From the IMG/VR virus record IMGVR_UViG_3300022723_000216, positions 1-58,253 of that record: 58,253 nucleotides of DNA. The stretch is one strand, 5' to 3'. The translations under genes were made by a program, and so were the position numbers. A model generated the notes under the pieces. The model ran no database searches and had not been told where the DNA came from. It saw nothing but the letters and a program-made list of their open reading frames with translations. This DNA is from a virus (lineage: Duplodnaviria; Caudoviricetes). This document shows, piece by piece, positions 1,620-51,055 of the stretch. Positions within the stretch are counted from its first letter, which is position 1; each line of letters begins with the position of its first letter.

Positions 1620-2999
1620 TCATGCTTCGTCCCACAAGTTGCGTTCGTCGGCGTGCCAGGCCCGCGGCCGAAACGTGACGATCTGTTCGAACCAACACAG
1701 CTCGACAACGCCCGTGCGGCCGTTGCGGTTCTTCTCGATGTACAGCTCCGCCTGCCCCTTGAGCTTCTGTTTCTCCTCGGTCGTCGGGGCGTAGTAGTCC
1801 GCCCGGTGCACGAACGCCACCACGTCGGCGTCCTGCTCGATCGAGCCGCTTTCGCGCAGGTGCGATAGCCGCGGCCGGTTGTCGCGCGTGGTCTCCGTCT
1901 GGCGGTTGAGCTGCGCCAGGCACAACACCGGCACCGCCAGCTCCCGGGCCAGACCCTTGAGCCTCCGCGAGACGCGCGACACCTGCTGTTCGCGCGAGTC
2001 GCGCGTGTTTTCGGGTGCGATCAATTGCAGGTAATCGATCACCACCAGGCCCAGGCCGCCGCGGCGTTTCTCGCGCCGGCAGACGGCGGCGATGTCACGC
2101 ATCGACATCTCGTGGCTGTCGTCGATCACCAGCTTCGCGCGGCTGATTTCGTTGGACGCTCGCACCAGCGCCTCGCGCTCGGCCTGGCCCATGAGGCCGT
2201 TGCGAATGCGGTAGCTGTCCACCTCGGCCTGGGAACACAGCATCCGCTCGCCGATCGCCAGCGCATTCTGTTCGAGAGAAAAGAAGCACACCGGCGCGGT
2301 GCTCGCGACGTTGGCGGCGATGTTCAAGGCCAACGCCGTCTTGCCCATGCTGGGGCGGGCGGCCAGGATCGTGAGCTCCGAGGGCACCAGCGGCGCCAGC
2401 GCGTCCAGGTCGTCGAAGCCGGTGGCCACGCCCCCGCGCTTGCCGCTCATGCGGGCGTCGATTTCCGCCATGGCGTCGCCGAGCACCTCGAGCACGGTGG
2501 TGGCCCGACTCCGCAGCGTGCCGCGTTGGTCGCGGATCTCGAGCACCAGCGACTCGCAGCGGTCGAGCACTTCGGTGGCGTCGTCGTCGCCGAGCGCTGC
2601 CCGCACGATATCTGTGCCGGCGTAGAGGCAGGCGCGCTTGATCGCCTCGTCGCGTACGAGTTTGGCGTAGAAGGACGCGTTGGCGGCCGTGGGCACCGCT
2701 TCGAACGCCGCGGCCAGCAGCGACGCGTCGACCTGGTGGCCCGCCTTCTTGGCATACGCCAGGAACAGCTTGAGGTCGATGCGTTTTCCTTCGGTGAGCA
2801 TCGCCAACAGCAGCGCGTACACGGCCCGGTAGCGGTCGTCGTAGAAGTCGCGGGCTTCGAGCACGAGCGACACGTCGTCCAGCACCTCGGGACGCAGGAA
2901 CACGCTGCCGATCACGGCCTGTTCGGCATCCACGTCCGAGGGCGGCGGGGCGTCCAGCAGTTCGCCGGTGCGGGTTTGGGTTTGGGTGCGGGCCATCAT
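1620..2999 (-). CDS. dnaB: Replicative DNA helicase
   Basis: AARPSMGKT Walker A, VIDYLQL, LAQLNR, LRESGSIEQDAD, KNRNG; ATGA overlap with the upstream gene. Confidence 0.97.
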   Translation of the reverse strand: MMARTQTQTRTGELLDAPPPSDVDAEQAVIGSVFLRPEVLDDVSLVLEARDFYDDRYRAVYALLLAMLTEGKRIDLKLFLAYAKKAGHQVDASLLAAAFEAVPTAANASFYAKLVRDEAIKRACLYAGTDIVRAALGDDDATEVLDRCESLVLEIRDQRGTLRSRATTVLEVLGDAMAEIDARMSGKRGGVATGFDDLDALAPLVPSELTILAARPSMGKTALALNIAANVASTAPVCFFSLEQNALAIGERMLCSQAEVDSYRIRNGLMGQAEREALVRASNEISRAKLVIDDSHEMSMRDIAAVCRREKRRGGLGLVVIDYLQLIAPENTRDSREQQVSRVSRRLKGLARELAVPVLCLAQLNRQTETTRDNRPRLSHLRESGSIEQDADVVAFVHRADYYAPTTEEKQKLKGQAELYIEKNRNGRTGVVELCWFEQIVTFRPRAWHADERNLWDEA

Positions 3000-3865
3000 G
3001 GCTCGGCCTGTGTGGGTTCGGGGATCGACGCGAGCAAGCCGTTCAGGTTCAGCGGGGGCTGGCACTCGGCGGCGCAGCGCTTGAGCACGCCGTGGAAATA
3101 CGCGTGGCGCGGTTTCTGGGGCGGGTCGTCGCGGGCGTAGGCGGCGCGCACCGCCTCCAGCGCATCCCAGACCAGGTGTTCGCTGGCCACCTGCACCAAC
3201 ACGGCCGCCTTGTACTCGAGCGAGCGATCCGGGGCGGTGGCCGGTGTGCCCAGCACGCCGGCGATCTTTCGTTGGTCTGCCGTCCGTTTGGAAACATTAA
3301 GGGCGTCAACGACAGACGTCTGACGTCTCTTAGAAGTAGAAGAAGAAGAAGAAAGAGACGTAGACGTCTGACGTCTAGCAAACCGCGTGCCAGGTTCGGT
3401 GGCGCGTGACAAAGGCGTGACATCGTCGGTTGGCGGATCCTTGGAGCGCCGCCGCTTTTGCCGTAACCTATTTCCCACGCGAGCCTTGTAGGGAGCGTGC
3501 ATGCGCCGGTTGACCACCGTGACAACCGTGGTACTTGTGAGTGACGTCGCCGTGACGCGGCGCGACAACGCGCGCGTTGTGGGGCGCGTTTCGGAGCGTC
3601 CTTCGAGCGTGATATCGGCCGCGCCGGTGCGCGCGAGGTCTTCAATGGCGGCCTTCATTTCGGCTTCGCTGCAGCGGGCCATGCGCGACAGTTCGGCCGG
3701 CGTGCCGGTCAGAAACCCGCTTTCGTCGGACTCGTGCATGGCGCAGAGCAGGTCCGCCCAAATGCCACGCGTGGCGGGGCAGCAGCGGCTGAGCGCCGGA
3801 TCCTTAAGCCAGTCGCCGGTGTACAAGTAGAGCCCCGGCTGTTTCTTGTCGTCATCGTCGGCCAT
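2996..3865 (-). CDS. Phage replication initiator (replisome organiser-like)
   Basis: N-terminal LYTGDWLKD...RGIWADLLC motif; Ser-rich linker; directly upstream of dnaB. Confidence 0.8.
   Translation of the reverse strand: MADDDDKKQPGLYLYTGDWLKDPALSRCCPATRGIWADLLCAMHESDESGFLTGTPAELSRMARCSEAEMKAAIEDLARTGAADITLEGRSETRPTTRALSRRVTATSLTSTTVVTVVNRRMHAPYKARVGNRLRQKRRRSKDPPTDDVTPLSRATEPGTRFARRQTSTSLSSSSSTSKRRQTSVVDALNVSKRTADQRKIAGVLGTPATAPDRSLEYKAAVLVQVASEHLVWDALEAVRAAYARDDPPQKPRHAYFHGVLKRCAAECQPPLNLNGLLASIPEPTQAEP
3314..3570. promoter_or_regulatory. Candidate replication origin (iterons inside the initiator gene)
   Basis: AGACGTCTGACGTCT twice (3314, 3362) flanking an AG-rich tract; repeated GTGAC motifs at about 11-bp spacing over 3404-3570. 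Confidence 0.5.
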
Positions 3866-3875
3866 AAATGCCCTC

Positions 3876-4103
3876 CTATTTGGCTCCCATCTCCTTCAGG
3901 TCCGAATCGCAGACCTCCGGCGTCCACCACAGGCGCTCCTCGTCGATCGTGGCCGTCAGGCGGGCCACCTCGGCCCACGTGACGCGCCGCCATTTCTTCT
4001 TGTGCTTGCCGCGGATCGCCAGGCCATCCGGGTCGATCCGCACGACCATCCGGCCGAAGCGGCGCACCAGCGGCTTGCGTAGCGTGGTGATGCTGCTAGG
4101 CAT
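3876..4103 (-). CDS. Hypothetical protein
   Basis: 75 aa MPSSITTLRK...; overlaps the upstream stop. Confidence 0.6.
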   Translation of the reverse strand: MPSSITTLRKPLVRRFGRMVVRIDPDGLAIRGKHKKKWRRVTWAEVARLTATIDEERLWWTPEVCDSDLKEMGAK

Positions 4104-4320
4104 CGGTGCCCTCCTGACACTGTTCCAGCACGGCGATCTGTCGATCGAGGTACCAACGCGCCTTCTTAAGGTCCTCGAGCGGGGCTCCCTTGTACGGCGC
4201 GCGGAGGATGTACTTGACGACGTTGCCCAGGTGGAACCCGAGCCCAAAGCCTTCGATGAGGTCAATGACTTCCATCGGTCCCTGGTTGTAGTGCGGCGGG
4301 TGGTCGACGCGCTCTGCCAT
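4096..4320 (-). CDS. DUF3310 family protein
   Basis: VDHPPHY...EVID...GNVVKY..RA..KG...EDLKKARWYL signature. Confidence 0.9.
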   Translation of the reverse strand: MAERVDHPPHYNQGPMEVIDLIEGFGLGFHLGNVVKYILRAPYKGAPLEDLKKARWYLDRQIAVLEQCQEGTDA

Positions 4321-4328
4321 GATCGCTC

Positions 4329-5054
4329 CTAGGGGCCCACGCGGCCGTTGTCGACAAACGCACGGTAGGTCAGCGGCCAACCCTCGGCCAAGAACCTCTC
4401 CGCCACGCGGGCGGCCGACTCGATCTCTGCCTGTGGGTAGCTCACAAAGGCGGCCTTCGGATCGTGGGTACGTAGCGACAAGAACGCCATCAGCGATCGC
4501 GGATTGCAGGTCACCCAGCACGACGAATAGATCGCGACGGGCAGGCAGGCGCGGGCGACCTCCTTGGCGTAGCCGGCGTCCAGCAGGTGCTGGTACGTCG
4601 TGTATGCGAAGGCGTATGCTTCCCTGAGGCGAGCGCGTAGCTCGCCCCATTGCGCGTCGGTGCCAGCCTGGAACCTGGGCCTGGCCGAGGTGTGCTCGGG
4701 CGCGGGCACGATCTTCCGACCGGCAGGCGGCACCCAGAACACCGGCTTGAGCTGCTTATAGCGGGCGGATTCTTCGTTGTAGCTGAACCCGATCCGATGG
4801 CGATGCCACTCCCGCCACACGAAGATCGGGGCATGCACAAAGAACGTCATCGCCGAGTGCTCGAACGGCGTGCCGTGCCGGTGCTTCATCAGAAAGTTGA
4901 TGAGGCCGGCGTTGGCGTCTGCGTTCACCCGCTCGGCGTACCCAGCCGCTTCCTGGCCGCTGGTGCTGACCTTAGCGGCCGCCACCACCATGTGGTCACC
5001 GCCCATGGTCTGGATCTTCTCGACGGTGATTTTGTCCGTGACTTCGATTTGCAT
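4329..5054 (-). CDS. thyX: FAD-dependent thymidylate synthase
   Basis: HGTPFEH; RHRIGFSYNEESARY ThyX motif. Confidence 0.97.
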   Translation of the reverse strand: MQIEVTDKITVEKIQTMGGDHMVVAAAKVSTSGQEAAGYAERVNADANAGLINFLMKHRHGTPFEHSAMTFFVHAPIFVWREWHRHRIGFSYNEESARYKQLKPVFWVPPAGRKIVPAPEHTSARPRFQAGTDAQWGELRARLREAYAFAYTTYQHLLDAGYAKEVARACLPVAIYSSCWVTCNPRSLMAFLSLRTHDPKAAFVSYPQAEIESAARVAERFLAEGWPLTYRAFVDNGRVGP

Positions 5055-28125: not shown

Positions 28126-29535
28126 TTACTTGCCGCCGATCGCCTCGAGCTTCTCCTCGATCTGCCGGCGCTTCTTGGCGGTATCACCGCCGGTAGCCAC
28201 CAGGTAATTCTTGTAGAGCTCGGGGTGCGTGCTCGCGATCCGCGCAATCGCGGACTGCCGACGCTTGAGCGCCGTCACGCCGTCACGCTGCGGGCCGACG
28301 GCCTTAGACACCAGCGCGTTGAAGTCCTCGATCGGATCGCCGCTCTGCAGATCGCCAGCGTCGGTGCCGCCCAGCGCGCCGCCAAGCGGGTCGTGCCCCA
28401 GGCTGCCGCTGTTGATGCGCTTCTCGCCCTGCGCCTTTTCGAGCTCTTCCTTCTGCTTGGCCTTGAGCTCATCGAGCTCCTTGGCGTGCGCCTCTTCCTT
28501 GGCCTTGAGCTGCGCGTCGACGTGCTTGGCGTAGTCGACGCTGGCCTGCTCGAGCGTGGCCTCGTTCTCGATCTGCTTCTCGCGCCAGTCAGCCGTCGAG
28601 TTGGGGAAGGCCTCTTTCAGTTGCTTCAAGGTGGCTGCGTCCATCTTTTGTCTCCCGAATAATGGAGTGGTCTTGTTCTTGCGAGTGGCAGCCACAAGCT
28701 GCTCGTACGTTTGCTCCAGCGTCTGGACGCCGTGTAGCAGTCCATCGTCGACGGCATCCGACGCCATGATCACGCGGCCGTCGGCCAGGTCGCGGATGTC
28801 GGCCAGCGGCAGCCCGGTGCCGCGCGAGATCTGTTCCAAATAGGCGTCGTTGATCGTGTTCACCAGGCGTTGAGCCTCGGCCAACTGCGCCTCGGTGATC
28901 TTCGTGCCGGGCTCGCCCATGCCCTTGAACTCGCCGGCCTTGATCACGTGCACCTGGATGCCCAGGGCCTCGGCCTCGCCGGAGTAGTCCACCAGCACTG
29001 AATAGGTGCCCATCGCCCCGTACATCGCCGTGGCGTTGTTGGCGAAACGCCGGGTGGTCTGGCTCATCACCGCCACGCCGGCCGACGCCGTCATGTCGTC
29101 GACGAACCCGTAGATCGGCTTGGCCTCAGCGAAGCGAGCCACCTCTTCGGCAAACTCCTCGTTGCCCTTCTGCGTGCCGCCCGGCGTGTCCATCACCAGC
29201 ATCGCACCGGCGACGTCGGCCGATTTGCGTGCCTGCCGCAACTGCTGCCGCGCTTGTACTGTGCTGGCGCCGCCGCCCAGCGACGACGCGTATTTCATGG
29301 TCGGGCCGATGATCGAGATCACTGCGATGCCGTCGGGCGTGAGCGGGTAGTCCCGATCGCTCTGCGCCTGCTTCGCGTCCGTGGGCCCCTTGCCGTTGAG
29401 ATGCGCCGGCAGGTTGAGCCCCTGGTACTGGTCAACGATGCGCCGGAAGGGCTCGTCGTAGACGCACCACAGGCCGAAGTAGTCGGCCACCTGGGGCGGC
29501 AGATCGAAGGCCGGCTTGAGGATGAAGTCGTTCAT
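28126..29535 (-). CDS. S49 prohead protease with C-terminal scaffold
   Basis: IAVISIIG, MDTPGG, MTASAG, AGEFKGMG; acidic helical tail. Confidence 0.9.
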   Translation of the reverse strand: MNDFILKPAFDLPPQVADYFGLWCVYDEPFRRIVDQYQGLNLPAHLNGKGPTDAKQAQSDRDYPLTPDGIAVISIIGPTMKYASSLGGGASTVQARQQLRQARKSADVAGAMLVMDTPGGTQKGNEEFAEEVARFAEAKPIYGFVDDMTASAGVAVMSQTTRRFANNATAMYGAMGTYSVLVDYSGEAEALGIQVHVIKAGEFKGMGEPGTKITEAQLAEAQRLVNTINDAYLEQISRGTGLPLADIRDLADGRVIMASDAVDDGLLHGVQTLEQTYEQLVAATRKNKTTPLFGRQKMDAATLKQLKEAFPNSTADWREKQIENEATLEQASVDYAKHVDAQLKAKEEAHAKELDELKAKQKEELEKAQGEKRINSGSLGHDPLGGALGGTDAGDLQSGDPIEDFNALVSKAVGPQRDGVTALKRRQSAIARIASTHPELYKNYLVATGGDTAKKRRQIEEKLEAIGGK

Positions 29536-31298
29536 CGGGCGGGCCTCCGGTCATCGCTGGGTTGGTCTGCCGGCTTGGCGTCGTCTTCGTCCCCTTCCAT
29601 CGTGGCCGTGGCCACCGCCTCGCCGCCGTCGCTGGTGTTGGCGCTAATCGCCAGCTTCGCGCCGGTGGCCTCGTTGCCGTAGCGGATCTCCCGCCACAGC
29701 ATGTTCACGTCAGCCATGGTGAAGACCTCGGGGAACTCCCCGACGATCTTGACCGCCTCGACGACTGCTGCGCGGATGAACTTGCCGCGATCGCGGATGA
29801 CCTCCGGTACGAAGTCGTCGAGGTCGATGCCGCGGGCGGCCAGGATGCTCCGCATGCTCTTGAGGTTGCGACGCTCGGCCAGGTCCTCGGCCGCCGCGTC
29901 TTCGAGCGGCTTGACGTACGGCCAGCCCTTGGGCCGGAACCGGAAGTTGAACGGGTTGATGCCGCGCTGCGTGGCTGCGTACAGCGCCGGGTCAAAGAAC
30001 GGCGAGCCGGGCGTGACGCGCTGCCGCGTCTTCCACTGGTACGTCGGTACGTACAGGCCCTGGATCAGATCGGCGATCAGTTGCTCCAGCCGCATCTTGA
30101 CCTGGTCAAACGTCATGCGGCCGCCGTGGAAGTTAACGAGCGACCCGTCGAGCAGCAGGAACGACAGCGGCAGATCGAGGTTGACCGCCAGCATCGTCAG
30201 CATTAGCGCCGCGTGCTTGAAAAAGCCCTCGGTGGGCATGGTGGCGTTCCAGCCCTTAAGCGAATAACCCTCGGGCGCCTTGAGCACCTGGGCCGGCTCG
30301 CCGACCTGCTCGACCGTGATCTGCTGCAACCCCAGGCCGACGTCGTACTGCGTATAGCGATCGCCGCCTTGCGGCAGCTTGCCCGAGCCGCCGGTGGGCA
30401 TGCCATTGGGGGCGAAGTTCTCGGAGTTCTCCATCAGGTAGGCGATCAACGCCCGCCGTAGCGCGCTTTTGATGTGCGCGTAATTCAGATCGTCAAAGCC
30501 GCGCATGGCCACCCGCGGCGGCGAGAGCCGGCTGATGCCCCGGCGCTGCTTGAAGCGGTGGGTGAACCCCATCCAGAACACGATCTTGTTGCCTTCCAGG
30601 TCGTAGGCCGGGAAGCGCCGCGATTGCCCGCGGCTGAGACTCTGGTGCGGCGTCAGACTGCGGGGCGTGAGCCAGTAGGCCACGGTGCGGCCGCGCTGCA
30701 CTTCCACGCCGTGCACAAAGCCGTCGGTCGCCAGACCGGTTGCGCGGCGGCCCCCGGGGTTGCGTAGATGGTGCGACTCCCAGGTCTCCAGGCTGCCGTC
30801 GCGGAGTGGGATGTGAACGATGTCGCCGTCCTGGCACTGGCTAAAGAACGACTGCCGCGCGATCTGCTGGAACGTGCGGCGCTGTTCGTAGTCGCACAGC
30901 CGCGGGTCGTCGCACCAGGCGTGCCAGAAGGCTTTCTGGTCGGCGTCGACCGCTTCGTCGCCGCTGTCGACGTCGAGCGTGAAGTCGCCGATCCGCATGT
31001 TGGCGATCAGGCGGTTGATGGCCTGCTCGACAAGGGGATGGTCGCGCACCGCGGAGCGCCCCCGCTCGACCATCAGGAAATAGTTGCGCTCGGTGCGGTA
31101 GTGGTAGTCGGCGTCGGTGCCGAGTGGATCGATCCCGCGCGGGATGGGATTCATCCGGTCGCTGGTGCCGGCCGCGTAGGTCTGGGCCGCCTCGCGATCG
31201 CGGCGCTGGGTGAAGTAGGCTTCATCCAACTCGCGGATGCGCTGGGCCAGGTTCCGCTCGCCCGCGTGGCCGTTATGGGCAGCTGCGATCATCATCAC
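29532..31298 (-). CDS. Portal protein, lambda family
   Basis: DGDIVH, HGVE...G..VAYW, QRRGISRLSP, VNFHGGR, WPYVKP; exact start uncertain. Confidence 0.9.
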   Translation of the reverse strand: MMMIAAAHNGHAGERNLAQRIRELDEAYFTQRRDREAAQTYAAGTSDRMNPIPRGIDPLGTDADYHYRTERNYFLMVERGRSAVRDHPLVEQAINRLIANMRIGDFTLDVDSGDEAVDADQKAFWHAWCDDPRLCDYEQRRTFQQIARQSFFSQCQDGDIVHIPLRDGSLETWESHHLRNPGGRRATGLATDGFVHGVEVQRGRTVAYWLTPRSLTPHQSLSRGQSRRFPAYDLEGNKIVFWMGFTHRFKQRRGISRLSPPRVAMRGFDDLNYAHIKSALRRALIAYLMENSENFAPNGMPTGGSGKLPQGGDRYTQYDVGLGLQQITVEQVGEPAQVLKAPEGYSLKGWNATMPTEGFFKHAALMLTMLAVNLDLPLSFLLLDGSLVNFHGGRMTFDQVKMRLEQLIADLIQGLYVPTYQWKTRQRVTPGSPFFDPALYAATQRGINPFNFRFRPKGWPYVKPLEDAAAEDLAERRNLKSMRSILAARGIDLDDFVPEVIRDRGKFIRAAVVEAVKIVGEFPEVFTMADVNMLWREIRYGNEATGAKLAISANTSDGGEAVATATMEGDEDDAKPADQPSDDRRPAR

Positions 31299-31608
31299 CG
31301 CGATAGCCGTACGGTCCGAAGTTCGAAAAGTCGCTGTGCAGCACGCTCGGGTTGGCCAGGCGCTGGGCGTCGGTCTGCGGGGCGTTGGCCGTGTACCAGG
31401 CGAGGCACATCTGGAGCTGGCGCTCGATGGCCTCGACGTTCACGTCCACGCTCAGCTCGCCGCGCCGGAAGGCCTCCTGCACTTTGTCGAGCTTGGCCCG
31501 CAGCGCCATGATGCGCCGCCGAGCCAGTGCCACGTCCGAATCGACGTCGTAGCCCAGCGTCGCGGTAAGTTCCGCCTCGATGCCGGCGATGGTCGTCAAG
31601 TCGGCCAT
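31273..31608 (-). CDS. Head completion (gpW-position) protein
   Basis: 111 aa immediately upstream of the portal. Confidence 0.6.
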   Translation of the reverse strand: MADLTTIAGIEAELTATLGYDVDSDVALARRRIMALRAKLDKVQEAFRRGELSVDVNVEAIERQLQMCLAWYTANAPQTDAQRLANPSVLHSDFSNFGPYGYRGDDDRSCP

Positions 31609-31701
31609 GTGCCCACTCTGGCAGTTGGCGCAGCTCGGCTGCAATGCTCAGAGCATCGGGCGCGTCGGGTTTGGGTGGATTCGGGCGCGTCGGGCGCGTT
31701 G

Positions 31702-31740
31702 TGGTATACTGGCCGCCGCCACAACCACCAGCTGGGGGAG
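31702..31740 (+). promoter_or_regulatory. Extended -10 promoter and RBS for the Cas12f-like gene
   Basis: TGGTATACT (TGn-TATACT) at 31702-31710; GGGGAG at 31735-31740; ATG at 31748. Confidence 0.6.
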
Positions 31741-31747
31741 CCCTGCC

Positions 31748-33040
31748 ATGAGCGCATTGGCTGAACACACCATGTGTGTTGCATGCGGCGTTGCCAGAGA
31801 AACCAAGCCGACACAGCGTGGACTCTTGCGATTGCCACGTGGCTGGAAGCGCATCGACGACGAAGTGCTCTGTTCTAGCTGCACACAGGATCGCTACGTC
31901 CTGCGGGCCGTGACCCTGCCCATCGCCAAGCCGCTTGATTCAACTTGGGCAGAGTTCCGCGAGATCATTCGCGGCCAGTGGTCTCTCGTGTCTCAGTGCA
32001 TGACCTGGATGGTCCGCGAGTTATACGCCCGCGACGCCGCACGCGCCGGCACGCACGACAAGCTTCCCAAAATGGAGCGGGTGTATCTCTATCCGGAAGC
32101 TCGCGAGAGATTTCCTGGCCTCGTGCCGGCGACGGTCTCGGCGCTTGAGCAGCTTGCTCAGTCGAAATACCGGAAGCAGCGTTACGGCGTGCTGTGGACA
32201 CAGGAGGAACAACTGCAAACGCTGCGCTACCCGCAACCGCTGATCGTGCCAGCGAAGAACTGGTCGATCGAGATATCACCGACGAATGCCCGGCGGGATA
32301 TCGTGCTGACGGTGCGGATCGCGGGCGCGCCGCGACAACTACGGCTGCGTAGTGGCGGCAACTTCCGCCGGCAGCGACTCGATATCGAAAAGATCATCGC
32401 CGGGGACGCCGTCAAGGGTGAGTTGGCTATCTATCGCAAGCGGGCCGCCGGCACGGATCGGGCGGGCGCCAGCGGTCAGAAGTCGAGCGCGCTGGGTAAG
32501 GATCGTGGGGACGGCGGGCAGCAGATTCGCTACGACACGATGGTCAAGCTGGTGGGGCGCTTCCCGCGCAAGCAACACGCCGAGCGCACTGGAACGCTGT
32601 ACGTACGGACGGCTGGCGAAAGCCTGCTCGTGGCGTTGAACGCCAAGGATGAGAAGCTGTGGGTGCTCAACAGTGACCACGTGCGGCGGTGGTGCGCGGA
32701 GCACATGGCGCGACTCAATCGCTGGAGCGATGACGCCAAAGCCGAACTGCGGCCCACCGTGCCGTTTGCCGATCGGCGGCAGGCGGCAGCGGTAAAGTTC
32801 CGCAACCGCATTCACTCGGCTTGCCTGGAGGCGGCAGCGCAACTGGTGGCCTATGCTGTGCGTCGGAAATTCGCCGAAGTGCGGTACAATGACGCGGACA
32901 AGAGCTACGTGGGCCGCTTCGACTGGAGCGGTCTCAAGGCGGCGATCGAACATAAGTGCAATGCAGACAACCTGCGATTCATCGACGCGAGCGGCGCGGT
33001 GAAGTCGCCATCCCGGGAGCCGCTCGAAAGTGAAGGGTGA
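31748..33040 (+). CDS. Cas12f/TnpB-like RNA-guided protein, predicted nuclease-dead and C-terminally truncated
   Basis: 430 aa; N-terminal CxxC...CxxC; Cas12f-like blocks LQTLRYPQPL, IEKIIAGDAVKGELAIY, RNRIHSACLEAAAQLVAYA, WSGLKAAIEHKC; RuvC-I reads TLYVRT and RuvC-II reads VRYND; no RuvC-III; adjacent CRISPR array. Confidence 0.75.
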   Translation: MSALAEHTMCVACGVARETKPTQRGLLRLPRGWKRIDDEVLCSSCTQDRYVLRAVTLPIAKPLDSTWAEFREIIRGQWSLVSQCMTWMVRELYARDAARAGTHDKLPKMERVYLYPEARERFPGLVPATVSALEQLAQSKYRKQRYGVLWTQEEQLQTLRYPQPLIVPAKNWSIEISPTNARRDIVLTVRIAGAPRQLRLRSGGNFRRQRLDIEKIIAGDAVKGELAIYRKRAAGTDRAGASGQKSSALGKDRGDGGQQIRYDTMVKLVGRFPRKQHAERTGTLYVRTAGESLLVALNAKDEKLWVLNSDHVRRWCAEHMARLNRWSDDAKAELRPTVPFADRRQAAAVKFRNRIHSACLEAAAQLVAYAVRRKFAEVRYNDADKSYVGRFDWSGLKAAIEHKCNADNLRFIDASGAVKSPSREPLESEG

Positions 33041-33156
33041 TCTTATGTTAAGGCGTCCGCAACGCCTAGCGCGGGATAGCTCCGGTACGTTTACCGGCCG
33101 GGGTGCTCGCGGAACGCGGCAAAAACTGTGCGGGGAGAACACGTTACGTGGCCGCC
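32988..33156 (+). promoter_or_regulatory. CRISPR leader / possible scaffold RNA region
   Basis: IR CGAGCGGC (32988) / GCCGCTCG (33019); hairpins AGGCGT/ACGCCT (33051-33067) and CCGGTA/TACCGG (33082-33097). Confidence 0.5.
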
Positions 33157-33408
33157 CCCGCAGTGGATGAACGACGTTGAATCTGCTGCGGGAATAGATA
33201 GGGAATCGCTCCCACGGGACTCCTGCCCCCGCAGTGGATGAACGACGTTGAATCTGCTGCGGGCGGCGAGTCGAAGCTTTTCACCCTCACGCAGTTGGGC
33301 CCCGCAGTGGATGAACGACGTTGAATCTGCTGCGGGAACGATGTCGTCTCCCGAGACCCAGACCGCGCCGCACCCGCAGTGGATGAACGACGTTGAATCT
33401 GCTGCGGG
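33157..33408 (+). CRISPR. CRISPR array: 4 identical 36-bp repeats, 3 spacers (35, 37, 36 bp), plus a probable 4th spacer and degenerate 5th repeat to ~33480
   Basis: CCCGCAGTGGATGAACGACGTTGAATCTGCTGCGGG at 33157, 33228, 33301 and 33373; unique spacers. Confidence 0.97.
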
Positions 33409-33752
33409 TCGAATCCCGCGCTGCTACTTTGGAAATGCTTGATCGCCGCAGGTCATGGGCCGACGCGTATTTCATCGCCGAGGCGATCGAAGCGAACGTG
33501 ACACCCAGCCAGTTCCCGCGGTACGTGGCTCATAGAACACGATGCCCGTCGACGCCGCCTACCCCCTGGACAACTTCAAGGTGATCGCGGGCAAGCGCTC
33601 TTCGCACAGCGCGACGCCGTGGATTGGTGGTACGCCGCATTGGGCGCCGCAGCTTCGTGCTGGGGCGCGACTGGATCGCCTACCTCGAGAAGGCGCCGAC
33701 CGTGTAGCGATAAAAACGCGGACAACCGTTCGATTGTCCGCGGCTCGATGTG

Positions 33753-34139
33753 CTATGCCCGCACGCGCTTCGCGCCATGTTGTGCATGTGCCTCGGCGAC
33801 CGCTTCCAGCAGATACCGCACGCCGTCGGCCGGGCTGACCACGCGCCGGCCGTTATCCAGCGTCGCCTGCCGCCGATCGAGGCCGTGGACCAGGCGCCGC
33901 AGCGCGTTGGTCTGTTCGCGCGTCAGCTTGATGTCGAGGTGGGCGCACCAGTCGATTAACGTGGCGTCTGGATCAAACGGTGCCTCGATGAGCACGGTCG
34001 CCAACGCTGGAGCTGCCAGTTCGGGCGCTGGCGTGGGTGGCGCGACGGTGCGCCGGCCAAGCGGAATGATCGCTGGATCCTTGGGCGTCGCCGGCAATGT
34101 GGTCTTGGCGGCTTGCTGCTTCTTGCTTACCTTCGGCAT
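33753..34139 (-). CDS. Hypothetical protein downstream of terminase
   Basis: 128 aa MPKVSKKQ...; GGAGG RBS. Confidence 0.7.
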   Translation of the reverse strand: MPKVSKKQQAAKTTLPATPKDPAIIPLGRRTVAPPTPAPELAAPALATVLIEAPFDPDATLIDWCAHLDIKLTREQTNALRRLVHGLDRRQATLDNGRRVVSPADGVRYLLEAVAEAHAQHGAKRVRA

Positions 34140-34161
34140 GGAGTTCCTCCCGTTTCGTGAG

Positions 34162-36402
34162 TTACCAGTTGGGGCGATAGACGCTCGCGTCTGTGCCGCC
34201 TGACGGCGGCTGTGACGCCGCCTGTTGAGCCGGCGGGGTCTGCACCGCCGTGGACCCAAATACGTTGATGCCGCGTACGCTGCGGGCACACACGGCCTGA
34301 TAGGTGGCGTCGAAGTAGTGGTTCGGCTTCGGCGACTTCCACCAGCCGGTGCGGGCCCCCTTGAAGCCGGGCACAAACCGCGTCTCCCAGGTCTCGGCCA
34401 GGATGTGCTTGGCGTACGATAGGTGCGCGTTGCGATTCACGCGGCCGTCGATGCGCGGCGGGTTAAAGACGCGCAGCGAGCCCGGCTCACCCGTTTCGGC
34501 CAGGAACCCTTCGTGGACCTTGAGCTTCCAATGGTCGGTGTTCATGTCCACGGTCGGCACGCCGGCCGGGAACGACACGTGCCAGTTGTCGCCCGCCACG
34601 ATGCGCCGGCCACCGGGCTGGCGATAGGGCGATTGCCCCTTGGACGGGCAGCAGCGGTCGAATCCGATCTCGCCGCAGAACAGCGCCACCGGCTGGGTGT
34701 TCCAACTCTGTTCCTTCCAGCCGGTGTCGATCAACGCCAGGTCGATGGTCCACTGGTCGTTGCCCGACTCGCTGGCCATGGGCGACGCTTCCTGATTCTG
34801 CCACCAGGCGTGCAGGCCTTCGAGGATCAACAGCTCGCAGTCAGCTGCGGGGCGGTTGGCCGTCTGGAATTCAAAGAAGTCGTAGTCGATGACGATTCCG
34901 ACGGCGTTCTCGTTCCAGGCCACGAGCGCGTAGTGCAGGCCGAGCTTCTGCACGTCGCCGCCCGCCGTGATGCACACCGTGCCTTCGGGCACCACGCGGC
35001 GCTCGATGCCGCTTAAGCAGTGGTTTTGGATGTGGTAGGCGGTGAGGATCAGCCGTGCCGCGCCCTCTTCCTCGGGCGGGTTGTTATCCATCTCGCACGC
35101 GACCGAGTCGGGGTCGGTGCGGGCCACCTCGTTGTAGTAGTGCTGCAGCGCCGAGACTTCGACCTGGGTGCCATCGCCCAGCACGGACGGGTCGTAGCGG
35201 TGCTCGTTGGCGACCACGGCGCCGGCGTCCATCAGCGCGCGGCGCTCGAGGTAGAACGCGTGTGACCGCCGGCAGTGCTTATCGGTGCTGATCTGGGCCT
35301 GAAACTCACGAAACTCCTTCTCGCGCAGTGAAACGTATTCCTCCCACAGGTCTTTGCGGTCAGGCGGCTTGATCAGGTAGCGGAACCGCCGCCCCTTCCA
35401 AGTCGGCTTCTGCTCGGGATCCGTGTATTTGAACGACACGCAAGTGCGGTTCTGGATGGTGGTCAGCATGACGCGGGCCACCGGCTTCTGCTGGCTGCCC
35501 AGGCCGCCGATCGCTCGATCGATGCGCTCCATGAGCTTGATGCCGCCCTCGCCGAGCTCGCCGGGACGCTTCCCCGGGCGGATGGTCTCTTCGGTGTCGG
35601 GGTCGTCGATGCCGACCAGCTGCGGCCGCCGGCCCTTGCGCTTGAGGCCGCGGATGGCCGAGTCGAGGCCGCGCGTGGCGATGATCGCTCGAGCCGCCGG
35701 CGCCCCCGGCACATTGGGCAACACGATCTCCGATCCGCACCAGGTGAACTTGCTCGAGACGCGGCGGTACGGCTGGCCGTTGTCGTGCCGTTCGCCGCTC
35801 ACCAGTTGGTACTGGGCGCGGTTGGGCGTGTTCTCAAGTGCCCGGACCGGCACGCAGACTTCCGGGTAGTCGTCCAACAGCAGCGAGTTCTCTTCGATCG
35901 CTGTTTTGATGGAGTCGAGCGAGTCGTTGGCCAGCGTGGCGGTGGCCGCGCACAGAACAGAAAACGAGAGCGCGCCTTGCAACGTGTATTTCAACAGCAG
36001 GCGCTCGAACAGGCTGGTCTTGCCTTCGCCGCGGCTGGCCGCGATCGCCTGGTCGCCGCCGTACACGATGGCGTCTCGGATGGCGCTGATCATCTCTTGC
36101 TGCTGCACGGTGAAGGCGTACCAGAACGGATCGTGCAGGCCGCACTCGATGCTGAAGTAGTGCATAAGCCAATCGATGTCGTTGGCCTCGAGCCGCTCGC
36201 GCCGCTCGCGGTTGGCGCAAGCCGGCACGACAACCTCTTTGGCCGCCGCCCGCTGCTCACGCTTGCGTTCGACGTCGCGTTCGCGCTCCGACGAGCGGCC
36301 GGTGATCTTGTCCAGCATGGCCAGTTGCTTGCGCAACGTGGCCGCCGCTTCGGCTGCCCGGGCCTGCATCTCTCGGGTGTTGGCGGCACTTTGTTCGCTC
36401 AC
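34162..36402 (-). CDS. terL: Terminase large subunit (gpA-like)
   Basis: AASRGEGKT Walker A, GIDDPD Walker B, GGDVQK nuclease, IDTGW, NHYFDA; GTGA overlap. Confidence 0.92.
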   Translation of the reverse strand: MSEQSAANTREMQARAAEAAATLRKQLAMLDKITGRSSERERDVERKREQRAAAKEVVVPACANRERRERLEANDIDWLMHYFSIECGLHDPFWYAFTVQQQEMISAIRDAIVYGGDQAIAASRGEGKTSLFERLLLKYTLQGALSFSVLCAATATLANDSLDSIKTAIEENSLLLDDYPEVCVPVRALENTPNRAQYQLVSGERHDNGQPYRRVSSKFTWCGSEIVLPNVPGAPAARAIIATRGLDSAIRGLKRKGRRPQLVGIDDPDTEETIRPGKRPGELGEGGIKLMERIDRAIGGLGSQQKPVARVMLTTIQNRTCVSFKYTDPEQKPTWKGRRFRYLIKPPDRKDLWEEYVSLREKEFREFQAQISTDKHCRRSHAFYLERRALMDAGAVVANEHRYDPSVLGDGTQVEVSALQHYYNEVARTDPDSVACEMDNNPPEEEGAARLILTAYHIQNHCLSGIERRVVPEGTVCITAGGDVQKLGLHYALVAWNENAVGIVIDYDFFEFQTANRPAADCELLILEGLHAWWQNQEASPMASESGNDQWTIDLALIDTGWKEQSWNTQPVALFCGEIGFDRCCPSKGQSPYRQPGGRRIVAGDNWHVSFPAGVPTVDMNTDHWKLKVHEGFLAETGEPGSLRVFNPPRIDGRVNRNAHLSYAKHILAETWETRFVPGFKGARTGWWKSPKPNHYFDATYQAVCARSVRGINVFGSTAVQTPPAQQAASQPPSGGTDASVYRPNW

Positions 36403-36668
36403 GTCTTGCCGCCCGGGCTCTTCCACAGGCCCTGTTCGGCCATGGCGTCGACCATCTCCTTGGCGGTCATCGGCTTCTTGGCCTCGGCCAGTAGGCCCGC
36501 CCGCCCGGCGCGCCGTGGGGCCACGTGGGCGGCCAGGCCAACGGCCGACATCCCGGTCTGATCACCGCGGTAAGCGCCCCGCATGCGTCGCGGGGCGTTT
36601 CTCGTTGACGTGCCGTACCTGGCCAACGCGCGCAACAGGCCGCGGGGCCGGCGGCGTCTGGCGTTCAC
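36399..36668 (-). pseudogene. ORF ending in a truncated HARE-HTH (HB1/ASXL) winged helix
   Basis: LAEAKKPMTAKEMVDAMAEQGLWKSPGGKT* stops where the recognition helix normally follows. Confidence 0.55.
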
Positions 36669-37996
36669 GTGGCAACCTCCTGGTGGACTAGCTCAGCCTT
36701 GCCGCCGGTGAACTTCTCCCACCGCTCGACGATCACGTCGCAGTACAGCGGGTCAAGCTCCATCACGAACGATCGCCGGCTGGTCTGCTCGGCGCCCATC
36801 AGCGTGCTGCCGCTGCCGCCGAACAGGTCGAGCACGTTCTCGCCCGGCTGCGACGAATAGCGCATGGCCCGGGCAGCGAGCTCCACCGGCTTCTCGGTCA
36901 GGTGGACCATCGATTGCGGGTTGACCTTCTTGACGCTCCACACGTCGACCGCGTTGTTCGGGCCGTAGAACTGGTGTGCCGATCCGAGGCGCCAGCCGTA
37001 GAAGCACCACTCGTGGTTGCCCAAGAAGTCCTTCCGCGTCAACACCGGGTGCTCTTTGACCCAGATGATGGCCTGCGAAAAGTAGAGCTCGCACGCCTTC
37101 AGGGCGGGCGGGTACTTGGCGCAGTTGGCATATCCGCCCCAGACGTAAAACCCACGTCCGGGCTCGAGCACCCGGGCGATATTGCCGAACCAGGCGTCCA
37201 GCAGTTCGTCAAACGCCTCGTCGCTGACAAAGTCGTTCTCGAGGGGCCGGTCCTTGGCCCGCATTTTTTTTCCGGTCGGCTTCGATTTGCCGGGATGACG
37301 CGCGAGATCGAGCGATTGGTGGTGCTTTGGCCCTTGGAACGAGCTCAAGCCTGCGGCGATCGCGTTGTTGCTCCGCGGCTCAACCTTCACGTTGTACGGC
37401 GGGTCGGTGTTGACCAGGTGGATCACTGCCCCGTCCAGCAGCCGGTCCAGGTGCTCTGGGTTGGCCGAGTCGCCGCACAGCAGGCGGTGGTCGCCGAGGA
37501 TCCACAGGTCGCCCGGCTTGGTGGTGGCCTCGCCGGGCAGGGCCGGAGCCTGGTCTTCGACGATCTCCCCGTTGTTGGCGGCCCGTCCGGCTATGCCGGC
37601 GGACTCGGCTAGCGACGCGAGCATGCCCTGCAGCGCTTCGCTATCCGTCTCGATCTGCCGCAGCAGCGTGTCGAGCTTCTCCGGGTCGGTGCCGGCCATC
37701 GCCGCGAGCGGGTCGACCGTCGCCAGCAGCTTGGCTGCCTCGGCCTCGTCGACGTCCAACACGAGCACCGGCCACTCCGTGTCGGGGGCGACGTCGGCCC
37801 GCAGGTGGCCGTCGATCAGATGTAACCCCTCCGGTGTCTCCCGTACCAGGAGCGCGTCGGCGATGCCGACCTCGGCCAGGATCCCGCGCAAGGCGTTTTG
37901 CTGGTCCTTCGAATGCGTCCGCCAGTTGCCCGGGTTGGGCAAAATCTCGCTCGCCTTCACGCGGCGAAGCTCTTTGATCCGATCTCGAATTGCCAT
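36665..37996 (-). CDS. ParB-N domain / N4-N6 DNA methyltransferase fusion
   Basis: PNPGNWRTH...LIDGHLR; TDPPY; HLTEKPV; VLDLFGGSGST. Confidence 0.93.
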   Translation of the reverse strand: MAIRDRIKELRRVKASEILPNPGNWRTHSKDQQNALRGILAEVGIADALLVRETPEGLHLIDGHLRADVAPDTEWPVLVLDVDEAEAAKLLATVDPLAAMAGTDPEKLDTLLRQIETDSEALQGMLASLAESAGIAGRAANNGEIVEDQAPALPGEATTKPGDLWILGDHRLLCGDSANPEHLDRLLDGAVIHLVNTDPPYNVKVEPRSNNAIAAGLSSFQGPKHHQSLDLARHPGKSKPTGKKMRAKDRPLENDFVSDEAFDELLDAWFGNIARVLEPGRGFYVWGGYANCAKYPPALKACELYFSQAIIWVKEHPVLTRKDFLGNHEWCFYGWRLGSAHQFYGPNNAVDVWSVKKVNPQSMVHLTEKPVELAARAMRYSSQPGENVLDLFGGSGSTLMGAEQTSRRSFVMELDPLYCDVIVERWEKFTGGKAELVHQEVAT

Positions 37997-49964: not shown

Positions 49965-50840
49965 TCACGCTATCACTTCCCATCCCGACTTGGTCACCCG
50001 GAAGCGATCGCCATGTTCACGAAGCGTGTTCTTGACCTCGACGTTCGAGGCCTCGACGGCTAGCGAGATCACCGGAATGCCGACCGGGCCCTCGGCCCGC
50101 AGGAACTTCCCGATCCGGTCGGCCAACGTCGGAGTTGGCCTTTCGGGTGGCGCCGGTTTGCCGGCGCCTGGCCGGCGTGGCGGCGGCGGGTCTTCGAACT
50201 CGTCGACCCCAGGCGGCCCAGGTGGGCCCGTGGCGCTAGGCCGTGCCGGCGCTTGGCCCCGAGCGGCCAACGTCCACCGCTTGCCCGCTGGGGCGAACTC
50301 TGGCGATTCCTTGAGCATTGCCAGCGCATCCGCCTCCGGGATCGAGCACGCGACGGCGATCTCCGATTTGCGCTTCGCACAACCGGCTGCCTTCAGGAAG
50401 GTGACCGCGAGCTTGACGTGTCGCTTTCGGTCGCCGGCGTCCGGCCGGTGCGCGAGCCGCGGCTGCCGCTTCTTGCGTGGACCCTTTAGCTTCGGGGTGC
50501 GTCTCCCCGGGTTGGCGGAGGGTTCGACCGTTGCGTTGAGCGCCGGCGGCATTGGCTCGCGGCGCTCGAGGGCGAAGTCGGCCAGCGCGAACACTTCTGC
50601 GGGCGTGTCGCACTCGAACGAGACCCGCGCCGAAACTGGGGCACCATCGTCATCGACACAGACCTCGACTTCGCTCGCTCCGACGTCGTCGAGCCATTCG
50701 TCGACGGTCTGCCCATCGGCGGCGGCCTGCAGGTTGATAGCATGTCGCAGTTTCTTGAGGGCTCTGCGTTCGATCTGCCCCACGGCTTCGCGGGTGACGC
50801 CGGCCGCGTCGGCGATCTGCTTTTGCGTGTAGGTCCTCAT
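49965..50840 (-). CDS. Sigma-70 region 4 HTH protein (candidate late regulator)
   Basis: TQKQIADAAGVTREAVGQIERRALKKLR. Confidence 0.75.
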   Translation of the reverse strand: MRTYTQKQIADAAGVTREAVGQIERRALKKLRHAINLQAAADGQTVDEWLDDVGASEVEVCVDDDGAPVSARVSFECDTPAEVFALADFALERREPMPPALNATVEPSANPGRRTPKLKGPRKKRQPRLAHRPDAGDRKRHVKLAVTFLKAAGCAKRKSEIAVACSIPEADALAMLKESPEFAPAGKRWTLAARGQAPARPSATGPPGPPGVDEFEDPPPPRRPGAGKPAPPERPTPTLADRIGKFLRAEGPVGIPVISLAVEASNVEVKNTLREHGDRFRVTKSGWEVIA

Positions 50841-51055
50841 GCGGTCCGCACCTCGCATTCCTCGACCACGTACGTCTCGTAGTTCCCAGCCAGGACGCGC
50901 CGGCCGCGCTCGTCTGTCCGCCAGGTCGTGTCGCGGACCCGGGCGGCCTGCTCGGCGATCTGCTCGGCGACCTCTTGGCTGGCGCAAATGGCAATGGTCT
51001 CGCAGTGCCAGTCGGCGCTTTCGTATTCGCGGTCGACGGTCCATACCGTGCTCAT
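50837..51055 (-). CDS. Hypothetical protein
   Basis: 72 aa; coupled overlaps. Confidence 0.6.
   Translation of the reverse strand: MSTVWTVDREYESADWHCETIAICASQEVAEQIAEQAARVRDTTWRTDERGRRVLAGNYETYVVEECEVRTA

Follow-up and report, generated by a model that had tools for sequence, protein, structure and literature searches.

What serves as the guide RNA at a CRISPR array that stands next to a small effector gene in a phage genome, and can the hairpin formed by its repeat suffice as the handle? The question is raised by the window analysed here, which is the whole of the 58,253-bp virus record IMGVR_UViG_3300022723_000216 (Duplodnaviria; Caudoviricetes), and in which four identical 36-nt repeats with three spacers (positions 33157 to 33408) follow the gene of a 430-residue protein, P0002 (Table 1). 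An earlier note on this DNA had taken the end-to-end pairing of the repeat as the sign of a guide independent of any trans-activating CRISPR RNA (tracrRNA). This proposal is not supported by the present analysis, since a covarying RNA upstream of the array (33048-33156) bears two anti-repeat segments that covary with the repeat ends. It seems reasonably probable to us that the array stores the guides for a Cas12f-type system of phage origin, probably nuclease-dead, which would use a scaffold RNA docked on both ends of the repeat.

The stretch from the stop codon to repeat 1 keeps its sequence and shape among loci whose proteins are only about 40% identical. In the window this gap (stop codon at 33040, repeat 1 at 33157) measures 116 nt, as the earlier note had stated. 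Comparison was made with 82 related loci (labelled L), drawn from viral contigs (18 + 4), species genomes (8) and metagenomes (52). A covariance model (R1), whose five-helix structure was set by hand on 18 sequences, was searched against the window and these loci on both strands (460 kb, E ≤0.01) and gave 84 matches, all 84 on the strand of the gene; the match in the window covers 33048-33168 (96.9 bits, E 8e-18). Sixty-seven loci extend 250 nt or more beyond the gene; the scaffold was recovered in 65 of these, among them every one of the 18 in which no array was detected. In L004, L010, L056, L064 and L065 gene and array are about 900 nt apart, and there the scaffold is found at the array, ending exactly at the first repeat.

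The 23 scaffold pairs were evaluated over 77 distinct rows, in which 90.7% of the cells are paired, against 62.7% after shuffling. Their covariation score is 0.65 compared with 0.16 for shuffled rows and 0.05-0.12 for slid partners, and compensatory changes were observed in all 23. The centroid fold of the window sequence recovers P1, P2/P3 and P4. RNAalifold on the MAFFT alignment gave only P1 and the repeat hairpin, the other helices coming from the hand-set structure and the covariance model.

An unbiased column-pair scan of the MAFFT alignment identified two extra helices, both joining the scaffold to the repeat. In the first, six columns of the P4 loop pair with the last leader base and the first five bases of the repeat, and this pairing forms an H-type pseudoknot together with P4. 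The second joins four P1-loop columns to the 3' end of the repeat; the window has UCCGCAA in this loop and CUGCGGG at the repeat end. The alignment of anti-repeat 1 is unfitted, because its helix is absent from the covariance model. In the same 77 rows, 95.0% of its cells are paired compared with 68.5% in shuffled rows, a level reached by none of 500 shuffles, and its covariation score is 0.665 against 0.193 (slid controls at most 0.21), with compensatory change in five of the six pairs. When loci were counted without any alignment, 49 of 72 distinct ones had, in the expected region, a 6-mer that is an exact Watson-Crick complement, where 2000 permutations gave a mean of 3.5 and a maximum of 11. 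The partners differ widely from locus to locus, for instance CCCUGA/UCAGGG, CCUCGC/GCGAGG and CCUGGA/UCCAGG. As for the P1 loop, it complements repeat positions -5 to -2, next to the spacer, in 38 of 54 loci (permuted mean 8.5, maximum 18); its partner is the repeat, because it complements anti-repeat 1 in only 2-4 of the 54.

Judged by this comparison, the scaffold is a tracrRNA- or scoutRNA-like RNA with a short, bipartite anti-repeat. Over the 54 loci the two repeat ends are Watson-Crick paired with the scaffold in 95% and 91% of cases; against each other they give 69% Watson-Crick pairs, 15% G-U pairs and 16% mismatches. Since the ends match the scaffold better than each other, the whole-repeat hairpin probably loses its outer five to six pairs to the two scaffold pairings when the RNA is at work, with the inner stem remaining. 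A conserved scaffold with covarying anti-repeats makes a system free of helper RNA unlikely. An essential RNA acting in trans had been named in the earlier note as a finding that would overturn its model, and this has come about in part, in the form of a strongly conserved partner RNA.

The repeat hairpin itself gives some weight to the model of the earlier note, in which the 36-nt hairpin alone is the handle, as in the CRISPR RNAs (crRNAs) of Cas12a, Cas12i and Cas12j. The upstream RNA would then be only a cis-acting leader, such as a signal for the transcription, stability or processing of the array or an element of the 3' untranslated region of the effector mRNA. Folding of the + strand repeat bears out the description given there, namely paired repeat ends in a 12-bp stem with two G-U pairs, capped by 3 bp of AAC/GUU. 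At -19.5 kcal/mol (z -5.35), equalled by none of 200 dinucleotide shuffles, this hairpin is well beyond chance. Across the family it covaries over its whole length (12 pairs, most with compensatory changes), the inner stem doing so strongly, and the repeats after the first have no scaffold in cis. The absence of a long anti-repeat was also correctly noted, because no match to the repeat longer than 11 nt (E 0.29) occurs elsewhere in the 58-kb contig on either strand; nor, consequently, was a long tracrRNA with an extended anti-repeat found.

Two further searches were directed at known or longer partners of the repeat. No match was obtained in an Rfam scan of 31000-34500 with E up to 1, so no known CRISPR-DR or tracrRNA family is present there. 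The best duplex between the repeat and its flanks within 450 nt was equalled by 2.7% of distant 50-nt windows, a type of scan that is uninformative in such GC-rich DNA. Several apparent long anti-repeat matches in the duplex scan were rejected as terminal repeats lying beyond the array bounds used.

A handle consisting of the hairpin alone nevertheless leaves much unexplained. Two scaffold segments covary specifically with the repeat ends, which is needless for a plain leader, and those ends fit the scaffold better than they fit each other. A tracr-independent system with hairpin crRNAs (Cas12a, Cas12i and Cas12j-like) would have no conserved accessory RNA complementary to the repeat, whereas the scaffold, with its covarying anti-repeats, is present here in 65 of 67 loci. 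In the 18 loci without a detectable array, the scaffold and one hairpin are the sole candidate guide. Both structural relatives of the effector, Cas12f and dCas12f, use large scaffold RNAs, as passages of PMC13472631 describe for dCas12f. On balance we regard the hairpin-only handle as unlikely, and keep to a scaffold docked on the repeat.

The kinship of the effector rests on its fold and on a family profile. P0002 has a CxxC...CxxC zinc ribbon at its N-terminus; the WED/REC/RuvC core behind it is Cas12f-like and ends about 17 residues after RuvC beta-5. As a single sequence it gave no Pfam, NCBIfam, PHROG or direct PDB-sequence match. Relatives were plentiful, with 146 matches among the scored candidates of one database and 890 cluster representatives at 50% identity (E ≤0.001) in a second; almost all are of 380-450 residues, and those with a name are called 'hypothetical'. 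One homologue, P0108, is listed with a precomputed Pfam tag (PF28348.1), which was not reproduced by the Pfam scan here.

The family alignment (A1) comprises 55 of the 120 listed homologues, and the AlphaFold (AF2) model of P0002 built on it reached a predicted local distance difference test score of 91.9 and a predicted TM-score of 0.86. Foldseek matched the model to AsCas12f (E 4.9e-17, TM-score 0.64-0.67). In the VIA comparison the leading matches were AsCas12f (8dzj_A, Z 25.7, root-mean-square deviation 4.1 over 334 residues) and a chain named 'dCas12f-gRNA complex' (9n9c_A, Z 24.6, deviation 3.4 over 323 residues), to residues 1-365 of which residues 44-414 of the model align nearly end to end. 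TnpB proteins ranked next (Z 15.6-17.4), with the larger Cas12 types below. The 55-sequence profile also matched by sequence SpCas12f1 (6.2e-8), AsCas12f (6.5e-6) and OsCas12f (3.3e-5). The relationship to Cas12f on which the earlier note had drawn is thus upheld both by the Z of 25.7 to AsCas12f and by profile matches with E from 6e-8 to 3e-5.

The catalytic positions appear altered. HMMER aligned the 'IQMEDL' strand of AsCas12f with the family motif 'Y-D-D'. The glutamate of 'QMEDL', which we take to be the RuvC-II residue E324, is aligned with an asparagine in the window protein, and among the 55 members with D in 44, N in six, I in three and R in two. The RuvC-I position would be an arginine (40 of 55 members), as placed by strand order in the model without residue-level superposition. 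The C-terminus of the family lies at a median of about 19 residues past RuvC beta-5, and a CxxC after position 376 occurs in one of the 55 members, leaving no zinc finger and no room for RuvC-III. Thus neither a complete RuvC D-E-D triad, given the replaced RuvC-II glutamate and the missing RuvC-III sequence, nor a zinc finger (the target-nucleic-acid-binding domain) between RuvC-II and RuvC-III was found; the extra N-terminal ribbon is present in 52 of the 55. P0002 is therefore probably nuclease-dead, because the RuvC-III segment and the zinc finger are absent; it is a Cas12f derivative, truncated like the published dCas12f proteins, that very probably lacks canonical DNA cutting. The best-conserved motif of the family is W-S-D-D-x-K-A-E-x-R-P (residues 326-336, window about 32723-32755), in which D329 is invariant in all 55 members. 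The motif lies in a loop that was modelled with lower confidence and joins two helices of the RuvC domain, presumably close to where Cas12 enzymes carry the lid.

Several points weigh against the combination of a docked scaffold with a non-cutting effector. The scaffold of the window on its own folds no better than its shuffles (z -0.16), and the support for it is all comparative. The model-based alignment was fitted to the structure under test, which inflates the pairing figures somewhat, the margin being very large. The anti-repeat and loop matches are the best window in a short region; permutation controls for this choice in the counts of loci, and the repeat-end percentages, which have no such control, are somewhat flattering. 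The balance of G-U over A-C in the scaffold helices favours the + strand only mildly (68 vs 48), and the covariation would be the same for pairing in cis with repeat 1 and in trans with the later repeats. On the protein side, the 'nuclease-dead' call is based on the canonical RuvC positions, with RuvC-I taken from strand order alone, and the invariant acidic residues D310, D329, E333 and D382 are kept, so a rearranged active site is possible. Furthermore, no protospacer was found for any spacer in the contig, phage, IMG/VR and locus searches.

The strand from which the array is read also bears on its guide. Transcription from the - strand, with the reverse complement of the repeat as the handle, would agree with the orientation of almost every other gene of the contig. 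A fold also remains for the - strand repeat, through its outer 7 bp and weak inner pairs (-13.1 kcal/mol, z -3.45, one of 200 shuffles equal), although it is less stable than that of the + strand repeat, in keeping with the C-A mismatches pointed out in the earlier note. Twenty-nine distinct repeats were available from the related loci (42 arrays minus seven with a consensus below 34 nt and six duplicates), mostly of 36 nt, hairpin-forming and with GGG at the end. The fold is more stable on the opposite strand in six of them and on the gene strand in 23 (Wilcoxon p 1.4e-4), with mean energies of -14.4 and -17.7 kcal/mol respectively, and G-U pairs number 47 on the gene strand against 16 on the other. 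This family-wide asymmetry supports transcription from the + strand. Moreover, a strong - strand terminator stands ahead of the array, no + strand terminator was found in the interval between gene and array, and the order gene, scaffold, array is fixed in 84 of 84 matches. In type V guides the repeat precedes the spacer on the 5' side, which, given a scaffold located upstream of repeat 1, requires the + strand. Reading from the - strand is accordingly a very remote prospect in our estimate, and transcription of the array from the + strand, co-directional with the effector as had been proposed, is most likely.

The - strand terminator (33742-33717) sits just past a - strand ORF (open reading frame) ending at 33753. 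It would halt terminase-side transcription ahead of the array, which raises the matter of how the portal and head genes on its far side come to be expressed.

The array has the usual features of a CRISPR locus, with regular identical repeats (start-to-start distances of 71, 73 and 72 nt) that are separated by unique spacers of constant length, beside a cas-type gene. No further repeat copy was found downstream of repeat 4 when the repeat was matched across the contig. Among the 58 loci with at least 450 nt downstream, the window included, 40 have a co-directional array within 1300 nt of the gene, and in most array-bearing loci the gap between the two is 111-221 nt.

Whether all units of such an array are used is a separate matter. 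Possibly only the scaffold, repeat 1 and spacer 1 work, in the style of an omega-RNA, with the further units being duplications of little or no function. This would suit the pseudoknot, which uses the last leader base and repeat 1 in cis, and also those loci in which tandem complete scaffold units replace arrays: three in L020 (3061, 3493 and 4260), two in L072 (412 and 854), and two each in L049 and L055. It would suit as well the resemblance of the 3' end of spacer 1 in L007 to the leader end. However, arrays of the family reach 13-14 units with identical repeats and different spacers, and 133 of the 150 family spacers are unique, which fits selection on every unit. In addition, the last spacer base is C in 50% of the 133 unique spacers compared with 30% overall; it mimics the leader base that pairs with the anti-repeat and hints at use in trans, ambiguity of the repeat boundary being the alternative. 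We judge a single working unit to be improbable, and favour a store in which later units would also be served by the scaffold.

Spacer 3' ends were observed to resemble the leader end in L007 (5363-5484), where 10 of 14 positions are identical; in the window the corresponding ends are GCCGCC for the leader (33151-33156), CCTGCC (33222-33227) and GCCGCA (33367-33372). Such likeness hints that arrays may gain units when the leader-repeat junction is duplicated, and not by the action of Cas1-Cas2. No Cas1, Cas2 or Cas4 was found among the 46 ORFs of the window in a PHROGs scan, nor any adaptation gene in a Pfam scan of 65 of the 156 flanking ORFs from 15 related loci. Tandem whole scaffold units on one strand were also seen in L013 and L004, and some loci of this sort have no regular array.

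The searches for targets may be summarised by database. Against the contig the longest match of the window spacers was 12 nt; against the phage collection they gave five records, all with E of at least 1 and no protospacer; and the 24-mer taken at the 5' end of each of the three had no exact match in IMG/VR. The array of L024 gave chance-level matches only in five metagenome-assembled genomes (MAGs) with family members. When the 150 spacers were compared with the 460 kb of related loci, the best match was 22 nt, a self-match in L065 located off the 5' end of the spacer. In that case positions 8-29 of a spacer shared by L065 and L066 match a palindromic site of the same contig, some 4 kb upstream (L065:381-404), which may be a self-target or chance.

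Among known systems, the type V-F Cas12f enzymes (AsCas12f, SpCas12f1 and Un1Cas12f1) give the best fold matches and share the miniature size. As in Cas12f, whose repeat:anti-repeat is bipartite, a scaffold RNA lies between gene and array and pairs with the repeat at two places. Unlike Cas12f, the family lacks both the RuvC-III segment and the zinc finger that follows RuvC-II, and its RuvC-II glutamate is replaced. The RNA differs as well, with anti-repeats of 7 and 4-5 nt, an internal hairpin in the repeat and a scaffold fused in cis to the first repeat.

Closer in several respects are the dCas12f proteins of Bacteroidota, which act in sigma-E-coupled RNA-guided transcription and of which a 'distinct cluster' is linked to CRISPR arrays (Hoffmann et al., Nature 2026; PMC13472631). 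According to passages of that paper, a C-terminal truncation removes part of their RuvC domain and they use a scaffold-plus-guide RNA; the legend to its Extended Data Fig. 1a mentions a structured intergenic RNA, detected by covariance, upstream of CRISPR loci. The family thus shares with dCas12f, so far as described in those passages, the Cas12f fold, the C-terminal truncation, a structured RNA before the array and the lack of a classical tracrRNA. In contrast, it is phage-encoded and occurs in Acidobacteriota and Planctomycetota contexts, whereas dCas12f is located on Bacteroidota chromosomes. No sigma-E (rpoE) gene adjoins the gene in the window, and the family has the extra N-terminal zinc ribbon and keeps regular arrays of 36-nt hairpin repeats behind the scaffold. 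Its sequence relation to dCas12f is at profile level, no closer than that to active Cas12f.

The scoutRNA of types V-C and V-D has very short complementarity to the repeat (Harrington et al., 2020, cited in PMC11127173). The likeness is one of function only, namely a structured RNA beside the array with short complementarity to the repeat in place of a long anti-repeat. The pairings in the window differ in that they clamp both ends of a hairpin repeat and belong to an RNA contiguous with the array. Cas12c1 has a Z of 7.1 and no Cas12d chain appears among the VIA matches listed, the effector being far closer to Cas12f.

With omega-RNA and TnpB the family shares a scaffold directly followed by guide units, the loss of RuvC-III and the fold matches to TnpB given above; neither transposon ends nor a transposase was seen. 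In parts of their paper, Altae-Tran et al. (2023; PMC10691335) describe Cas12f relatives that lose RuvC-III while the array shrinks onto the tracrRNA, and 'omega-RNA arrays' in inactivated ones, which the loci with tandem whole scaffold units resemble. The family looks like a phage-borne stage of this Cas12f-to-omega-RNA series with regular arrays still kept, an intermediate position suggested because most loci still have a regular CRISPR-like array. A full-text literature search, with supplements and figures outside its reach, found no description of the phage family, which may therefore already be included among the V-U groups of PMC10691335 or in the tree of PMC13472631. Groups with altered catalytic sites named in the former include V-U24, V-U43 and V-U44. 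From the comparisons made here, the locus would best be described as a putative CRISPR-linked, nuclease-dead Cas12f with a distinctive guide architecture, in which a scaffold embedded in the leader is predicted to clamp a hairpin repeat by means of a bipartite, very short anti-repeat.

Cas12m (type V-M) uses a crRNA alone. The family, unlike Cas12m, conserves a scaffold RNA, and its fold match to Cas12m is much weaker (Z 11.8 to 8hhl_A). As a functional analogue Cas12m is likely all the same, being reported in parts of PMC11656645 and PMC10691335 to bind DNA and so block transcription; both would be compact type V effectors on mobile elements that silence without cutting.

A working scheme can be outlined from these results. 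The gene, scaffold and array would be read on the + strand, probably as one transcript. Covariation shows that the RNA of about 110 nt lying 5' of repeat 1 folds into P1 to P5 and holds the repeat at both ends, the 7-nt segment pairing with the first five to six repeat bases and the base preceding them, and the P1 loop with repeat positions -5 to -2; the inner stem-loop of the repeat would stay folded. Scaffold and first repeat-spacer unit would be one molecule, resembling a natural single-guide RNA in cis, whereas for later units the scaffold may act in trans, as a tracrRNA or scoutRNA does, by very short complementarity. The 430-residue protein with this composite RNA would then bind DNA matching the 35-37-nt spacer and not cut it, the likely outcome being blocked or steered transcription of rival-phage or host genes. 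The suggested role, which is silencing of rival phages, host genes or the phage's own genes, is drawn from the dead nuclease and from the precedents of Cas12m and dCas12f.

A bolder version is put forward here as conjecture, and we would not expect it to hold in full. The family may be a surviving link between the single-guide omega-RNA and the CRISPR array, with a new guide architecture, in which one scaffold fused to the array clamps a hairpin repeat at both ends by 7-nt and 4-nt pairings, and which serves a DNA-binding, non-cutting, 430-residue programmable silencer of rival phages or host genes in phages of Acidobacteriota and Planctomycetota. If so, these would be among the smallest natural modules for CRISPR interference, with a gene of about 1.3 kb and about 150 nt of RNA. 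Should the scaffold model hold, it would make available a very compact natural RNA-guided DNA binder, would provide an architecture in which a scaffold reads a hairpin repeat through two very short, re-programmable pairings, and would offer a concrete view of how CRISPR arrays and single-guide RNAs interconvert. The family is large, with its 890 representatives, and has no model in Pfam, NCBIfam or PHROG. For annotation, it would be advisable to compare the short 'leader' across loci before a type V system is called free of tracrRNA.

The features located in the window are collected in Table 1.

Table 1. Positions in the 58,253-bp window of the effector gene, scaffold RNA, array and neighbouring features.
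Feature	Position	Strand	Remarks
Lambda-type portal gene	29532-31298	-	Pfam Phage_portal_2, E 5.6e-32; PHROG 21
Effector gene, 430 aa (P0002)	31748-33040	+	Gene-called form; start is M57 of a longer ORF
Conserved structured scaffold RNA (tracr/scout-like)	33048-33156	+	Abuts repeat 1; about 110 nt
Scaffold helix P1	33051-33055/33063-33067	+	Covariance model
Anti-repeat segment 2, CCGCA in P1 loop	33057-33061	+	Complements TGCGG, repeat positions 31-35, e.g. 33187-33191
Scaffold helix P2	33070-33074/33107-33111	+	Covariance model
Scaffold hairpin P3	33082-33097	+	Covariance model
Scaffold helix P4	33116-33120/33151-33155	+	Covariance model
Anti-repeat segment 1, TGCGGGG	33129-33135	+	7/7 Watson-Crick with C33156 and repeat bases 33157-33162 (CCCGCA)
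Scaffold helix P5	33140-33143/33147-33150	+	Covariance model
CRISPR array	33157-33408	+	Four identical 36-nt repeats, three spacers
Repeats 1-4	33157-33192, 33228-33263, 33301-33336, 33373-33408	+	All four identical
Spacers 1-3	33193-33227, 33264-33300, 33337-33372	+	35, 37 and 36 nt
Candidate fourth guide	33409-33444	+	Stretch 3' of the last repeat; suggested by type V crRNA polarity
Intrinsic-terminator-like hairpin	33717-33742	-	11-bp stem then TTTTT; between the - strand terminase-side genes and the array
Terminase large subunit gene (gpA type)	34162-36426	-	Pfam GpA_nuclease, E 3e-15; PHROGs 15 and 38

The record carries a range of phage genes, including those for a DnaB-type helicase, a RecE-like exonuclease, an HNH endonuclease, a tape-measure protein, a major head protein, a head protease, a lambda-type portal, a gpA-type large terminase and a DNA methyltransferase. 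The - strand carries nearly all of these genes, and the effector gene and array form a + strand island between portal and terminase. The order terminase, module, portal was also observed in two viral contigs, L007 (93-1598 and 6121-8394) and L082 (906-2987 and 7140-8774), and the site between terminase and portal may be a preferred insertion point for the effector-scaffold-array module. Scans with the single protein and with a close alignment found no relatives above 47% identity in viral contigs. The eight species-genome loci lie in MAGs labelled Bryobacteraceae, Solibacteraceae, Acidobacteriota and Planctomycetales, and in one 'Saccharibacteria' bin.

A few of the related loci depart from the common layout. 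In L022, from a Bryobacteraceae MAG, a family member (2995-4360) follows downstream of an AcrB-family RND efflux gene (85-2247) at a distance of about 750 nt, with one small DUF4097 ORF between them, and has a single scaffold with one hairpin and no array. Its solo guide matched, in its own MAG, itself and two sites with three mismatches, and the 18-nt start of the presumed guide had no good match there. The CRISPR-linked dCas12f cluster is said, in a passage of PMC13472631, to target efflux promoters. In L044 (2208-2444) and L045 (3282-3386) the scaffold is followed by a degenerate first hairpin, a promoter-like TTGACA and then another repeat type with a period of 65-67, which may represent a second system or a replaced array.

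Pfam and PHROG scans of the window found no sigma gene next to the effector gene; the lone sigma-like ORF (49965-51044, - strand) is 17 kb off and matches PHROG 351 weakly (E 3e-7). Sigma-70-domain ORFs were seen near the module in L005 (5991-6854, Sigma70_r2) and L003 (5961-6497, HTH_17 and Sigma70_r4). Beside the terminase gene of the window, the DNA methyltransferase ORF (36665-37996, - strand) also matches ParB-like N-terminal families (PHROGs 498 and 620).

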